Shown in pieces: positions 1,746 to 7,446 of a DNA stretch of 64,000 nucleotides. Source of the stretch: Candidatus Marinacidobacterales bacterium (GTDB lineage Bacteria > Acidobacteriota > Vicinamibacteria > Marinacidobacterales > SMYC01); assembly GCA_965224085.1 (NCBI GenBank), contig CBDCYI010000011.1, positions 1,472,001 through 1,536,000 of the forward strand. The letters are read 5' to 3'. The translations under genes and the position numbers were made by a program. The notes beneath the pieces are model-generated. The model was not told where the DNA came from and did not search any database. It saw nothing but the letters and a program-made list of their open reading frames with translations. Positions within the stretch are counted from its first letter, which is position 1, and every line of letters starts with the position of its first letter.

Positions 1746-2684
1746 CTACTGCGACTCCCCGCAGAACGGACAGCTCGTGCTTCGCGCATGGAGGGGTTTG
1801 CGGCAGTTCCAGCAGAAGCCTGCGGAGGTTTTCTCTCTTGCTCTCAGTCTCGAGCGGATGTCTTCGAGGCGCGAGGCGCGGTGATCGATCTCGCTCGCGG
1901 TGCCGAGATCGTCTAGGAGCTCTCGCGTGCGCTGGTAGCGGTCGGAGATATCGGGGGCTAGCGCGCGCATGATGATCTCCTCCATCTCTACCGGGATCGT
2001 TTTGTTGCGCTCGCGGGGGCGCACGGCGCGGCCAGAGAGCGCCATCTTCTCCAGCTGTCTCGGATTGGCACTGAAGTAAGGGAGGACGCCGGTCATCATC
2101 TCGTACATGATGACGCCGAGCGAGTAGACGTCGGAGGAGAACATGGCGCGTCCCTGGAACTGCTCGGGCGCCATGTAGGGCGGGCTCCCGATGATCGTCG
2201 ACGCGTGCTCCGCGACTTCGAGGAAGCGGGACGTGCCGAAATCCGTAATCTTGATCTGGCCCTCAGGTGTCACCAAAACGTTCCCTGGCCGCAAATCGCG
2301 ATGGAGAACACCCTGAGCGTGAGCATATTCGACACCCGTGGCAAGTTGGCGCGCGAAATCGGTTGCTTGCTCGATACCGAGACCGTTCTCGCGCTCGAGC
2401 ATGGCTTCGAGGCTCTCACCTTCGACGAATTCCATGACGATGAAGAAGTAGTCTTCAGCTTTCTCAGCGGTGACGATGCTGACGATGTTTGCATGGTCTA
2501 GCGCCGCAAGTAGCCTCGGCTCTCGGAGCAACTCGTCGAACTCACCATTTTGTTTGTGCGGCACCTTGATCGCGACTTTCTTGTCGATCCACGTGTCGCG
2601 AACGAGATAGACCGTTCCGAATCCCCCGCTCCCTAGCGTCTTGAGGACCTCGTACTTGCCGAGTTGGTTTCCGAGGAAAAACAT
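1746..2684 (-). CDS. Hanks-type Ser/Thr protein kinase with C-terminal zinc ribbon
   Basis: GSGGFGTVY, VAIK, HRDLRPGN, DFG, YMAPE motifs; C-terminal CWNC...CPFC; start set at ATG 2684 (MFFLG). Confidence 0.92.
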   Translation of the reverse strand: MFFLGNQLGKYEVLKTLGSGGFGTVYLVRDTWIDKKVAIKVPHKQNGEFDELLREPRLLAALDHANIVSIVTAEKAEDYFFIVMEFVEGESLEAMLERENGLGIEQATDFARQLATGVEYAHAQGVLHRDLRPGNVLVTPEGQIKITDFGTSRFLEVAEHASTIIGSPPYMAPEQFQGRAMFSSDVYSLGVIMYEMMTGVLPYFSANPRQLEKMALSGRAVRPRERNKTIPVEMEEIIMRALAPDISDRYQRTRELLDDLGTASEIDHRASRLEDIRSRLRAREKTSAGFCWNCRKPLHARSTSCPFCGESQ

Positions 2685-2752
2685 CTGAGCGGCGCGCAGT
2701 ATAACATCCGCTTCGTCTCGGCTCGGCCACCAGCAATCGATCGCTCGATGTG

Positions 2753-2781
2753 TTGACAACACAAGGGTTTTTACCTAGCAT
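2753..2781 (+). promoter_or_regulatory. sigma70-type promoter for pilT-recX-alaS
   Basis: TTGACA (2753-58), 17-nt spacer, TAGCAT (2776-81). Confidence 0.6.
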
Positions 2782-2892
2782 AGATCCTTAGAGGAAACTT
2801 TTTTTCAGCGCAAACTGAGTGAGTAAGTGTGTTTTCAAAAAGCGCTATCTATCCGTTCTACGAGATAATCTCGCCGGGAGCAGGGACAGAAC

Positions 2893-4252
2893 ATGCATAT
2901 TAACGACTTGTTAACCCTAATCGCAAAATCTTCGAAGCACGAAAACGCGAAACAGCCGCACTGGGCGCAGGCGAGAAGCTCGTGCTGGGGCACCCGCTCG
3001 CCGCCACTATAGGTGATTCTGCACGGTGTATGCAGAACCTGGAAAAGGTGCTATTCACGGGGCCAAAGACCTCAGACACGGTGACGTTTATTTGCGATTA
3101 GGGTTAAAAGTCGCATCGGAGCGCAAGGCGTCCGATTTGCACCTCAAGGTGGGAAGCCATCCTGTCATTCGCGTCGCCGGAGAGCTCGTCCCGCTCGTGG
3201 AAATGAAGCGCTTGATGCAAGAGGACACCATCGCGATGGCGTTCTCCATCATGAGCAACCGTCAGAAGCAGAAGTTCAAGGACAATCTCGAGATCGATAT
3301 CGCCTACAGTGTCCCTGGGCTCGGACGTTTTCGAGCCAACGTATTCCAGCAGCGCGGCACCGTGGGCCTCGTCCTTCGTGTCATCCCCGTCAAGATTCTC
3401 ACCATCCGAGAGCTGGGCCTGCCACTCGTGCTCGAGAAGATCTCGCAGGAGACGCGCGGGCTCATCCTCTGCACCGGAACGACTGGTTCGGGCAAGTCCA
3501 CCACGCTCGCGGCGATGATCGACTACATCAACTCGCATCGCTGCGAGCACATCATGACGATCGAGGATCCGATCGAGTTTCTCCACCGCGACAAAAAGTC
3601 GATTGTGAACCAGCGCGAGGTCGAAGTCGACACGAAGAGCTTCGCGGGGGCGCTCAGAAGCGCCTTGCGTCAGGATCCCGATGTCATCCTCGTCGGTGAG
3701 ATGAGGGACTACGAAACCATCGAGACCGCCATAACCGCCGCGGAAACGGGTCATTTGGTGCTCTCGACGCTCCATACCCTCGATGCCACGGAAACGGTTA
3801 ACCGCATCATCGCGGTCTTTCCCCCGCATCAACAGAAACAAATTCGACTGCAGCTCGCTGGCGTCCTCAAAGCCGTCGTTTCCATGCGACTCATCCCGCG
3901 TGCCGACGGGCATGGCCGTGTGCCCGCCGCGGAAGTAATGATCGCGACCCCGTTCATCCGTGACTGCATCATAAACAAAGACCAAACAAAGCTCATCCAC
4001 GAGGCCATCGCCGCGGGCGTCTCCCAGTACGGAATGCAGACCTTCGATCAGTCCATCTTCAACCTCTACAAGAAAGATCTCATCACGTATGACGAGGCCT
4101 TGAGGCGCGCTAGCAACCCGGACGAGTTCAAGCTCAAGATCCAGGGCATCCAGTCCACTAGCGACCTGGCCCAAGAAGAGATGGAACGCAGCATGACCGA
4201 CTTCATGGACGAGGGCGGTGCCGGTGGAGGAAGCGAGTTCGAGCTCACTTGA
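2893..4252 (+). pseudogene. pilT: Type IV pilus retraction ATPase PilT/PilU, interrupted near the N-terminus by a MITE (possibly still translated from GTG 3026)
   Basis: ATG 2893 gives MHINDLL; removing the insert rejoins KVASERKASDLHLKVG; Walker A GTTGSGKST, TIEDPIE, LRQDPDVILVGEMRD, AETGHLVLSTLHT. Confidence 0.9.
2915..3103. mobile_element. 189-bp non-autonomous MITE, 13-bp perfect TIRs, TTAA (or TA) target duplication
   Basis: TTAA|CCCTAATCGCAAA (2911-2927) ... TTTGCGATTAGGG|TTAA (3091-3107); removing the element plus one TTAA restores the pilT frame exactly. Confidence 0.92.
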
Positions 4253-4754
4253 TGGGTCCGTCCCCAAACGCTCGAAGGCCAAAGCACACGACTTTGCGCT
4301 GAGAAGGCTCGCTCGCCGCTCCCATAGTGAAGGCGAGCTCACGCGCAAGATGGCCCGCGCCGGCTATCCCGATGACGAGATCGTCGAAACGATCGATTTT
4401 CTTCGGGCACACGGCTATTTGGACGACGTCACTTTCGCTCGCGATTTCGCACGCGCGCGAGCGAATCGTCGGCGCTGGGGCCCAGCGCGCATCGAGACAG
4501 CGCTTCGAGCGCTCGCGCTCGCCGAGCAACCTATCAAGGCGGCCCTCGCAGAGGTATTCCCCTCCGGTGAGCGCGAGGCCTGTGAGCGCGCTCTCCTCCG
4601 TTTTCTCGCGCGCGAGCGTCGCTCGCTTTCCCCGGCAAAACGCAAAGCGCGCGCCTATCGCCACCTGCTTTCACGAGGATTCGCGCCTGAGACAGCTCAT
4701 GAATTGGTATCCAACCGCGATTTCGAGGATACTGACGGGTTAGAATCTGAGTAA
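4218..4754 (+). CDS. recX: Recombination regulator RecX (start uncertain)
   Basis: ALRRLARRSHSEGEL, GYLDD..FA, WGPARI, LLSRGF motifs; lies upstream of alaS. Confidence 0.88.
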   Translation: MPVEEASSSSLDGSVPKRSKAKAHDFALRRLARRSHSEGELTRKMARAGYPDDEIVETIDFLRAHGYLDDVTFARDFARARANRRRWGPARIETALRALALAEQPIKAALAEVFPSGEREACERALLRFLARERRSLSPAKRKARAYRHLLSRGFAPETAHELVSNRDFEDTDGLESE

Positions 4755-4764
4755 TCGATCCGAC

Positions 4765-7446
4765 ATGAAGGTCAAAGACATCCGAAAGCGCTTCCTCGAC
4801 TACTTTGCTAAAAAAGAGCATCGTGTCGTCGCGAGCTCTTCGCTCGTTCCCATTTCCGACCCTACCCTCCTTTTCATCAATGCCGGTATGAATCAGTTCA
4901 AGGATGTGTTCCTTGGCCTCGAGGCCCGCGACTACAACCGCGCAACAACGGCCCAGAAATGCGTCCGTGCCGGCGGAAAACACAACGATCTCGAGAATGT
5001 CGGCGTCACCGCACGCCATCACACCTTCTTCGAAATGCTTGGCAATTTTTCCTTTGGCGACTACTTCAAAAAAGAAGCCGTGGACTTCGCGTGGGAGTTT
5101 CTCGTCGACGAGCTGAAGCTAGATCCCGAGCGGCTCGTCGTCACCATCTTCGAAGGCGATGACGACGTGCCCCGCGACGCGTCCGCCTACGATTTTTGGC
5201 GAAAGTATTTCGAGCCCGAATTTATCCACGAGCTCGGCCGAAAGGACAACTTTTGGTCCATGGGCGATACCGGCCCTTGCGGTCCGTGCTCCGAGATCCA
5301 CTTCTTTCAAGGCGATCACTTGCCTTGCGACGAGACGAAGTGCCTCGGCGTCGCCTGCGAGTGCGACCGCTGGCTCGAGATCTGGAATCTCGTATTCATG
5401 CAGTTCAACCGCGCCGAGGATAAGAAGCTGCACCCTCTGCCCCAGCCAAGCGTCGATACCGGCATGGGCCTCGAGCGAATCGCGGCGGTTGTCCAGAACG
5501 TTTCCAGCAACTACGACACGGATTTATTCACTGAGCTCCTCGACGCCATCGGCCGGCGCATGGGCAAAACCTACCAGCGGAGCGCGTCCGACGACGACGT
5601 CTCTTTCCGTGTTATCGCCGACCACGTCCGAGCGAGCACATTCTTGATTTCCGACGGGGTGATGCCGGCTAATGAAGGTCGAGGCTACGTGCTCCGCAAG
5701 ATCATGCGCCGCGGGATGCGCCACGGCAAGAAGCTCGGGATCAGAGAGCCGTTTCTCTTCGAGCTGACCGAAAACGTGATCGAGGAGATGCAGGACGCTT
5801 ACCCGGAGCTTTTGCTCTCGCGCGAGCTCGTCCGACGGGTCGTGAAATCTGAAGAGGAGCGTTTCGGCACAACGCTCGCCACTGGAATAGCCGCGCTCGA
5901 AGAACAACTCGGAAAAGAAACTATTTTCAAGAGCAAAGTACTTCCGGGACCCGAGGCCTTCAAGCTCTACGACACGTTCGGTGTGCCTCTCGATCTTCTC
6001 GTCGACATCGCGTCCGAATCCGGGGTCGCTGTGGATTCCGAGGGCTTCGATAGGGAAATGGAACGCCAACGCACCAAGGCCCGCGCGTCATGGAAAAAGA
6101 TCGCGGCCGTGCCCTATCGATCCATTTACGGAGAGCTACGCGGGCGCTTCGAGACGCGCTTTGACGGCTACGATCACGAGAAAATATCGGAGTCACGCAT
6201 CCTCGCTCTCACGAAAGACGGCGTGGAGGTGCCCGAGCTTCGCGAGGGCGACGAAGGCGAAGTTTTCCTCGACAAGACGCCCTTCTATCCGGAAGGCGGC
6301 GGCCAGGTCGGTGACCGTGGGGTGATCGCTGGCCCAGACGGTGTCGCCGACGTCGTGAACACACAGTCGCCAGTGAGCGCGCTCGTAAGCCATCACGTTC
6401 GCGTGAGCAAAGGAACTCTCGGCCATGAGCAAAGCGTCGTCGCGAGCGTCGACGCCACGTCGCGCAAAGGCGCGGCATCGCACCACACGATTACCCACAT
6501 ACTCCACGCAGCGCTTCGAGAGACCCTCGGCCCTCACGTGAAGCAGGCGGGCTCTCTCGTGGCGCCCAATCGATTGAGGTTCGACTTTTCGCACTTCGCG
6601 CCAATGACTCGCGGAGAGCTTCAGCAAGTCGAAGGCCGGGTGAACGAGAAGATCCAAGAAGATTTGGATGTCGCGACCGACACGTTGTCTCTCGACGAGG
6701 CGCTCGCGCGCGGCGCCATGGCCTTCTTTGGTGAGAAGTACGGTGACCGTGTTCGCATCGTCGAGATCCCCGAGTTCAGCCTCGAGCTTTGCGGCGGGAC
6801 GCATCTGCGCCGCACAGGCGAGGCCGGCCCTTTCCTCATCACGAACGAATCCTCGGTCGCGTCCGGTATCCGGCGCGTCGAGGCTTTGACCGCTCTTGCC
6901 GCGATAGAGCATTGGCAGAAGCGGAACATTTTGCTCGAGCAAGCAAGCCACGCGCTCAAAACACGGCCGGACGAGCTCTCTCGAACTGCCTCGCGGCTAC
7001 GCGAAGAGCTCAAGCGCAAAGAGCGCGAGGTGGAAGACCTCAAGCTCAAGCTCGCCACCGGGGGCGTGGCTAGCGCCGATGCCGAGACAACGACGATCGG
7101 CGACGTCGTCGTTTGGACGCCCGCGCCTCTCACCGGCTACGGAAAGAAACAACATCGTCAAGTCGTCGATACGTTCAAGGAGAAGCACCAAAAGGCGTCT
7201 TGGGTGGCCATTTCCACCGCGGTCAACGACGACAAAGTGTCTCTCATCGTCGAAGTCTCGAAAGGCCTCGTCGACCAGATTCGCGCCGACCAGCTCATCA
7301 AAGAGCTCGCTACCATCATCGAGGGTCGCGGCGGCGGCAAGGCCGAGCGTGCGGAAGCCGGAGGCGGCTTTCCCGATCGCGTTGACGAGCTTCTCGAGCG
7401 TGGTCTCGATCTCGTGCGCCTCGCGCTTTCAGGACAACGTGTATAA
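4765..7446 (+). CDS. alaS: Alanine--tRNA ligase
   Basis: DPTLLFINAGMNQFK, RHHTFFEMLGNFSFGDYFK, HTITHILH, ELCGGTH, GRGGGK; 893 aa. Confidence 0.99.
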   Translation: MKVKDIRKRFLDYFAKKEHRVVASSSLVPISDPTLLFINAGMNQFKDVFLGLEARDYNRATTAQKCVRAGGKHNDLENVGVTARHHTFFEMLGNFSFGDYFKKEAVDFAWEFLVDELKLDPERLVVTIFEGDDDVPRDASAYDFWRKYFEPEFIHELGRKDNFWSMGDTGPCGPCSEIHFFQGDHLPCDETKCLGVACECDRWLEIWNLVFMQFNRAEDKKLHPLPQPSVDTGMGLERIAAVVQNVSSNYDTDLFTELLDAIGRRMGKTYQRSASDDDVSFRVIADHVRASTFLISDGVMPANEGRGYVLRKIMRRGMRHGKKLGIREPFLFELTENVIEEMQDAYPELLLSRELVRRVVKSEEERFGTTLATGIAALEEQLGKETIFKSKVLPGPEAFKLYDTFGVPLDLLVDIASESGVAVDSEGFDREMERQRTKARASWKKIAAVPYRSIYGELRGRFETRFDGYDHEKISESRILALTKDGVEVPELREGDEGEVFLDKTPFYPEGGGQVGDRGVIAGPDGVADVVNTQSPVSALVSHHVRVSKGTLGHEQSVVASVDATSRKGAASHHTITHILHAALRETLGPHVKQAGSLVAPNRLRFDFSHFAPMTRGELQQVEGRVNEKIQEDLDVATDTLSLDEALARGAMAFFGEKYGDRVRIVEIPEFSLELCGGTHLRRTGEAGPFLITNESSVASGIRRVEALTALAAIEHWQKRNILLEQASHALKTRPDELSRTASRLREELKRKEREVEDLKLKLATGGVASADAETTTIGDVVVWTPAPLTGYGKKQHRQVVDTFKEKHQKASWVAISTAVNDDKVSLIVEVSKGLVDQIRADQLIKELATIIEGRGGGKAERAEAGGGFPDRVDELLERGLDLVRLALSGQRV

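Follow-up and report, generated by a model that had tools for sequence, protein, structure and literature searches.

A recently active miniature element in a pilT gene of a Candidatus Marinacidobacterales bacterium, very probably mobilised by an IS1380-family insertion sequence

The window analysed here is a stretch of 64,000 nucleotides (C11:1472001-1536000) from the genome of a Candidatus Marinacidobacterales bacterium (source assembly GCA_965224085.1, hereafter G000; 6.87 Mb, 12 contigs, 60% G+C). Close to its left edge lies pilT, a gene for a PilT-family retraction ATPase, which is interrupted by a 189-bp miniature inverted-repeat transposable element (MITE). The insert amounts to 193 bp (the MITE and one TTAA) and shifts the reading frame by +1. 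The native ATG at 2893 encodes MHINDL ahead of the element, the insertion falls in codons 7-8, and the pilT reading frame resumes at 3104 as LKVASERKASDLHLKVG... The interrupted gene scores 475.1 bits with the TIGR01420 (PilT/PilU) profile, whose cutoff is 319.1, the alignment covering positions 9-343 of the 343 in the profile; it also matches the Pfam domain T2SSE (PF00437). The MITE itself has no coding capacity, with stops in all six frames. The features of the locus, in window coordinates, are as follows.

2893..2914, + strand: 5' fragment of pilT, from the native start codon to the left target copy; its ATG and the codons after it can be aligned with the uninterrupted genes of G001-G004 and G010
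2911..2914, no strand: left TTAA of the target-site duplication, read from the sequence; a single TTAA or CTAA in the orthologues
2915..3103, + strand: MITE, 189 bp, with 0 differences from the consensus of the 27 full genome copies
2915..2927, + strand: left terminal inverted repeat (TIR) CCCTAATCGCAAA, 13 bp, read from the sequence; the same 13 nt (14 if the following A is counted) begin the left end of a 1508-bp insertion sequence (IS)
3091..3103, - strand: right TIR, the exact reverse complement of the left TIR, read from the sequence
3104..3107, no strand: right TTAA of the target-site duplication, from the sequence and the orthologue comparison
3104..4252, + strand: intact remainder of the PilT-family ATPase gene, from TIGR01420, PF00437 and the orthologue comparison
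3010..3012, + strand: TAG stop reached after 39 codons by translation from the native ATG, read from the sequence
3011..3028, + strand: putative restart signal within the MITE, AGGTGA at 3011-3016, a 9-nt spacer and GTG at 3026-3028 in the pilT frame, opening the reading frame 3026-4252
2753..2781, + strand: promoter-like site TTGACA-17-TAGCAT upstream of pilT, a consensus match only (10/12 positions)

The initial annotation had described an element with perfect 13-bp TIRs and TTAA on both sides, which breaks the pilT frame with a 193-bp insert and whose removal together with one TTAA restores an N-terminus MHINDLLKV. The sequence readout confirmed the structure and the frame shift, and the restored sequence matches the empty orthologous sites exactly. 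All five relatives examined have such an empty site; G001-G004 belong to the same genus as G000, and G010 to a different one. Their orthologues read uninterrupted ATGCAyATTAACGACTTGyTAAAAGTCGCATCGG and carry one TTAA or CTAA where the MITE has inserted. The insertion is therefore derived, and both the duplication and the MHINDLLKV N-terminus are real. The remainder of pilT in G000 is 96-98% identical to the orthologues and free of stops. A palindrome around the insertion, CGACTT...AAGTCG, was considered as part of the element and rejected, being native pilT sequence that is present in the orthologues too. An Rfam scan of positions 2700-3300 gave no match at E <= 1; the single-strand fold of the MITE (-37.3 kcal/mol, z -2.9) is mostly the TIR stem, and we draw no claim from it. 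For annotation purposes, this pilT should be called interrupted and the MITE masked as a repeat.

The genome of G000 contains 27 full-length copies of the MITE, 98.4-100% identical, and four partial ones. Eleven of the full copies, including the one in pilT, are identical to the consensus, and an older sub-lineage is marked by shared variants at three positions; transposition has therefore occurred repeatedly. The copies at C5:1934590 and C5:2301841 share one duplicated segment, which leaves 26 independent genome sites. To these were added nine more from seven other genomes (a set of ten copies on nine loci, one sharing flanks with an own-genome site), giving 35 distinct sites. The two flanking 4-mers are equal at 34 of them: TTAA at 22, TTAG at seven, TTCA at three and CTAA at two. 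The 4-mer thus varies between sites and is equal within a site, TTCA included, which establishes a duplication of 4 bp. This tabulation of the flanks of other copies, suggested by the initial annotation, upholds the TTAA-type duplication that it had read at pilT. There is also a preference for A or T at the position two bases beyond the duplication (31/34 sites on one side, 27/34 on the other). Since TTAA accounts for just 0.038% of all 4-mers in the genome (2638 sites), target specificity is strong; a chance origin of the pattern is out of the question. With TIRs, a target-site duplication, many dispersed copies and an empty site in relatives, the element has the attributes of a MITE; it is a real and recently active one.

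Two observations on the target sequence may be added. From the base composition of G000, about four times as many TTAA sites would be expected as the 2638 present in its 6.87 Mb, and a visible share of the TTAA sites of this genome consists of duplications flanking copies of the MITE or of the IS described below.

No transposase had been seen in the window by the initial annotation, and indeed all matches to the transposase in its own genome lie outside it. The genome-wide search for an autonomous element with the same ends led to the 1508-bp IS, located elsewhere in the genome by perfect 13-bp end matches with a differing interior. Its left end reads CCCTAATCGCAAAA... (at greater length, CCCTAATCGCAAAAAAAGAG...) and its right end ...TTCAATTAGGG (at greater length, ...ATTATTGTTCAATTAGGG). 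It has CCC ends and 4-bp duplications, and carries a single open reading frame (ORF) of 457 aa. Three full copies are present (C4:1089133-1090640, C11:789707-791214 and C11:714667-716175), as well as two truncated copies and two solo right ends. Both termini of the MITE are of the left-end type and agree with the left end of the IS over 14 and 13 nt, and the right end of the IS matches a MITE end at 10/13 positions. The flanks of 34 distinct IS copies were tabulated. Most of these copies come from G002, a genome of the same genus with at least 27 of them; in 27 of the 34 the flanking 4-mers are identical (TTAA 15, TTAG 6, CTAA 5, TATA 1). At C11:789510-791218 the two elements form an array, TTAA-MITE-TTAA-IS-TTAA, one having inserted into the duplicated TTAA of the other. 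CCCY ends with CTAA, CTAG or TTAA flanks recur in relatives of the IS at 43-60% protein identity. These relatives come from several phyla, in metagenome-assembled genomes (MAGs) with labels such as Actinomycetota, Chloroflexia and delta proteobacteria; in three of the relatives, two of which lie on IS-sized contigs, the flanks are unequal. A tblastn search of PLSDB plasmids with the transposase gave no match at 1e-20.

Judged by its sequence, the partner IS is a member of the IS1380 family. Its transposase scores 224.1 bits against the NCBIfam IS1380 equivalog NF033539 (cutoff 180) and 127 bits (E 5.6e-37, cutoff 34.7) against PF13701, and also matches PF01609. More than 4400 homologues were found, mostly of 457 aa, and those named by NCBI are called 'IS1380 family transposase'. 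In the ISfinder definition, IS1380-family elements are about 1.5-2 kb long, with one ORF, ends starting with CC and a 4-5-bp duplication, and the 1508-bp IS agrees with this in size, ORF, ends and duplication. The partner shares with ISEcp1, IS1247 and ISPme1 a single ORF, a length of about 1.5 kb, short inverted ends starting with CC and a short duplication, which in IS1247 is a 5-bp direct repeat, with 16/13 inverted repeats (Table 2 of PMC3281130). The element in pilT differs from such IS in being a 189-bp non-autonomous sequence with two left-end-type termini and an unrelated interior, and the target is here strongly TTAA (22/35 MITE sites, 15/34 IS sites). Known IS1380 members are described in an excerpt of PMC9330008 as tolerating imperfect, inverted-repeat-like ends; the same tolerance would explain how the MITE could share only 13 bases with its partner.

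The initial annotation had called the element piggyBac-like. What stands of this reading is the 4-bp TTAA-type duplication, the CCCT ends and the kinship of the two groups: piggyBac is paired with IS1380-like prokaryotic elements by Arkhipova 2017 (a passage of PMC5718144), and IS1380 serves as an outgroup in a survey of piggyBac, excerpts of which also describe TIRs starting with CCCTT, CCCTC or CCCAT and duplications of TTAA, rarely of TTAG or CTAA (PMC10813416). The TTAG and CTAA variants thus occur on both sides, as do short TIRs beginning with CCC, here CCCTA at both ends. The fold of the transposase, modelled by AlphaFold from an alignment of 31 sequences (predicted local distance difference test score 87, predicted template modelling score 0.87), adds a further likeness, a predicted insertion domain in the RNase H core as in piggyBac. 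However, the nearest solved structure is Tn5 (Z 23.6-24.0 over 348 residues, root-mean-square deviation 4.4, identity 8%), followed by piggyBac (6x67; Z 15.9 over 330 residues) and piggyBat (Z 14.2), with retroviral integrase cores behind them at about Z 11. A Pfam scan of the transposase at E <= 0.01 returned PF13701 and PF01609 only, and not PF13843. Because PF13843 is missing, the target appears more relaxed and the fold is nearer to Tn5, the MITE and its partner are not piggyBac proper. Further differences are a C-terminal part that, by inspection of the sequence, has no cysteine-rich domain, and a bacterial host, piggyBac and its MITEs being eukaryotic. The CCC... ends and the TTAA-type 4-bp target common to the IS1380 pair and piggyBac nevertheless make the deep relationship between these groups tangible.

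Tn5 and other IS4-type elements resemble the partner in providing the best structural match to its transposase and through the PF01609 domain; they differ by the 8% sequence identity and by the NCBIfam assignment, which is here to IS1380. Tn5 also has 9-bp duplications and different ends. The classical bacterial MITEs, Correia/CREE of Neisseria and Nezha of cyanobacteria, are like the element in pilT in measuring less than 300 bp, in lacking coding capacity, in having TIRs, a target duplication and many near-identical copies, and in inserting in and beside genes. Their ends come from another transposase family, and the element in pilT has a 4-bp target of TTAA type, not TA.

Taking these data together, we consider it highly likely that the MITE is a non-autonomous element moved in trans by the 457-aa DDE transposase of the IS1380-family IS, and that it entered pilT in one recent insertion. 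The transposase encoded by the 1508-bp IS elsewhere in the same genome would recognise the shared CCCTAATCGCAAA ends and act on the MITE in trans. It would cut a TTAA-type target (W-N-TTAA-N-W) with a stagger of 4 nt and insert the element there, so that the four bases are duplicated. A single recent event of this kind would have brought a consensus-identical copy into codons 7-8 of the retraction ATPase gene; with the frame shifted by 193 bases, translation from the native ATG would stop after 39 codons, and the paralogue would be knocked out or, at best, altered at its N-terminus. Both Tn5 and piggyBac transpose by cut-and-paste, with hairpins formed at the ends of the transposon, and because the modelled fold resembles both, cut-and-paste chemistry is the probable mode of transposition. 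Loss of function of this PilT copy is likewise a probable outcome. The genome has two further full-length PilT-family paralogues, with 52% and 46% identity, and another PilT-family locus (C4:1455510-1456455) in two adjacent pieces with 44% and 50% identity, which suggests a frameshifted or split paralogue.

Several observations weigh against this proposal. Beyond the terminal 13-14 bases, the similarity between MITE and IS is within the range of shuffled controls. The interior being unlike the IS, parentage rests on ends, targets and co-occurrence, and mobilisation by this particular transposase is what we infer from them. Co-occurrence is also imperfect: among the genomes with the MITE, G021 and G033 have no transposase copy, and G003, G010 and G012 have fragments only. 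One MITE site, at C9:32028, has unequal flanks (GATA and TTAA), as do seven of the 34 IS copies, six of these with YTAR-type sequences on both sides; recombination between copies could account for the unequal IS pairs. Finally, the gene may not be null, as the ORF 3026-4252 is open and in the pilT frame.

This last point underlies an explanation that we regard as unlikely, though it deserves more weight than the other two discussed below: that the insertion is no knock-out, translation restarting at the GTG at 3026 to give an altered but working PilT in which 26 MITE-encoded residues replace the first six. A Shine-Dalgarno-like AGGTGA lies 9 nt before the GTG and overlaps the stop of the short upstream peptide. 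A consensus scan found no promoter-like or terminator-like site in the MITE, and the only promoter-like site across 2650-3250 is the one at 2753-2781 (shuffled sequences average 0.4). Since recX and alaS follow downstream on the same strand, read-through transcription is likely. The occupied allele is also the one seen in four sequencing runs, and the MITE copy in a GGDEF-EAL gene, the second intragenic copy in the same orientation, has the same phase. Two in-phase copies out of two, however, have a chance probability of about 0.11. The residues lost begin a conserved N-terminal segment (TIGR01420 profile positions 1-8), and the intact downstream part is explained equally well by a young insertion, the copy having no differences from the consensus. 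The restart product, moreover, is a prediction from sequence.

Two other explanations were considered. The initial annotation had proposed that clean excision could switch pilus retraction on and off; in its general form, an IS1380-type transposase would excise the MITE seamlessly at TTAA and so restore pilT and the other interrupted genes in a fraction of the population, toggling pilus retraction. The TTAA duplication and CCC-type ends fit the piggyBac pattern (as given in excerpts of PMC10813416), the removal of the element with one TTAA leaves the exact orthologous sequence, piggyBac is among the two nearest solved folds, and the downstream part of pilT is still intact. Nevertheless, Tn5 is the closer fold (Z 24 versus 15.9), and Tn5 is not known to excise seamlessly. 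The 11 identical copies and the marked sub-lineages show net accumulation, and the other insertions lie in unrelated genes (GGDEF-EAL, DUF4388 and amidohydrolase), as in random mutagenesis. Empty sites were sought over positions 2500-3600 in contigs assembled from four public runs, which belong to three studies. In each run one contig covers the left flank and enters the element as far as 2936, and a second begins within the element (3080-3083) and continues into the right flank, at depths equal to that of the flank (24/22.6, 20.8/15.3, 31.9/35.2 and 50.9/40.3); none joins 2914 to 3108 across the element, which is weak evidence, as contigs drop rare variants and rare empty sites are possible. 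The depth of MITE words in these runs, about 100 times that of the flanks, sums all organisms of the sample and was not used as a copy number. The switch thus finds no support in the data and appears to us very improbable. The remaining explanation, that the element is a MITE of the IS630/Tc1-mariner type or the IS5 type and not of the IS1380 type, has next to nothing in its favour apart from the central TA of most duplications and the YTAR 4-bp targets, which are also typical of IS5-group elements. The duplications are 4 bp long and include TTCA, which has no TA, at 3/35 sites; the TTAG and CTAA pairs agree at their outer bases; the one IS in the genome that has such ends codes for a protein of the IS1380 family; and the IS5 model NF033581 gives the transposase 16.2 bits against a cutoff of 140. 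The TA duplication of IS630/Tc1, which the initial annotation had mentioned as an alternative, is excluded by the matched TTAG, CTAA and TTCA pairs.

As a long shot, one may imagine that an IS1380 subgroup with CCCY ends and TTAA/YTAR targets, present across many phyla, has kept an ancestral piggyBac-type chemistry including seamless excision at TTAA, which would make its insertions reversible. If true, this would be the first scar-free transposon excision in bacteria and a population-level switch acting on motility and cyclic di-GMP signalling; its hosts would be sponge- and sediment-associated Acidobacteria, in which the MITEs in the pilT, GGDEF-EAL and DUF4388 genes would be reversible. The small 457-aa transposase is in any case a candidate for TTAA-specific, possibly scar-free transposition.

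Returning to the IS1380-type pair itself, the MITE was detected in nine of the 61 related genomes searched, G000 counted. It occurs in 4/18 genomes of family f1 and 4/8 of family f2, and in none of the 28 genomes searched of family f3. Copies 100% identical over the 189 bases are present in seven other genomes, which represent five genera and both families. Over the first 97 bases of pilT, in comparison, G000 and G010 share only about 80% identity. The occurrence of identical MITE copies in two Ca. Marinacidobacterales families, against a conserved gene flank that has diverged to about 80% identity, implies very recent horizontal spread between families. The IS has near-identical copies in records of Candidatus Marinacidobacterales MAGs. 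Full transposase copies (at least 98% identity) are found in G002, G023 and G025, and the transposase tally of 10/61 genomes includes G027, a genome flagged as unpublished on which nothing else here depends. A plausible vehicle of horizontal spread is a 3764-bp segment carrying one MITE copy, which is 99.6% identical between G000 (C5:1888925-1892687) and G025, a member of the other family. In its G025 counterpart (C1:6318931-6325298; L132, L133) the segment is bracketed by two copies of a 1.09-kb repeat, of which G000 has about 19 copies at about 95% identity; the segment with its flanking repeats looks like a composite transposon. The MITE was not detected in any of 400 other genomes searched across the phylum, with only two candidates scored per genome, and the exact 27-mer of its left end had no match in viral contigs or in Joint Genome Institute metagenome contigs, a search that misses diverged copies.

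Insertion into genes is not limited to pilT. Pfam scans were made of 29 flanking open frames of at least 90 aa, at 22 of the 27 sites, and nine of the 29 frames had Pfam hits; the longest open frame across reconstructed empty sites was dropped as a measure, being uninformative alone at 60% GC. A GGDEF-EAL gene is split within its GGDEF domain by the MITE at C5:139596-139784 (L007), the two pieces meeting at profile position 59; relative to the internal GTG frame, this copy has the same orientation and phase as the one in pilT. A DUF4388 gene is interrupted at C4:706912-707100 (L015), and the 3' end of an amidohydrolase gene is cut at C11:789514-789702 (L002), where the adjoining IS shares the TTAA of the MITE. 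Together with pilT, these genes document that insertional mutagenesis is under way in Acidobacteria of the sea that have not been cultured.

MITEs, the IS1380 family and the kinship of IS1380 and piggyBac are already known. Among the papers listed by our literature search, none was on an IS1380-derived MITE or on a TTAA target for a bacterial IS1380 element, and none was found under the name Marinacidobacterales. What is distinctive here is the complete pair of parent and MITE, the verified empty site, the insertion in a pilus-retraction gene and the identity of copies across families. The pair thereby offers a clean and currently active MITE with its parent from the bacterial counterpart family of piggyBac.

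Some observations concern the surroundings of the MITE copies. Downstream of the pilT copy, recX (4218-4754) overlaps the end of pilT and is followed by alaS (4765-7446) on the same strand, and the MITE may thus sit in a transcript that also serves an essential gene. Elsewhere, copies cluster in repeat-rich regions, at C5:1.875-1.935 Mb in G000, C1:8.38-8.54 Mb in G003 and C1:0.097-0.110 Mb in G002. Within another repeated sequence (GGTGCTTCCGC-TTAA-GTGTTGG), the same TTAA has been struck independently several times, by copies in either orientation. A distinct family of repeats, about 60 bp long and with 90-98% identity, lies about 115-180 bp to the left of the G000 copy at C5:1934590 and recurs in at least 40 further places of this genome, mainly on C9 and C5.

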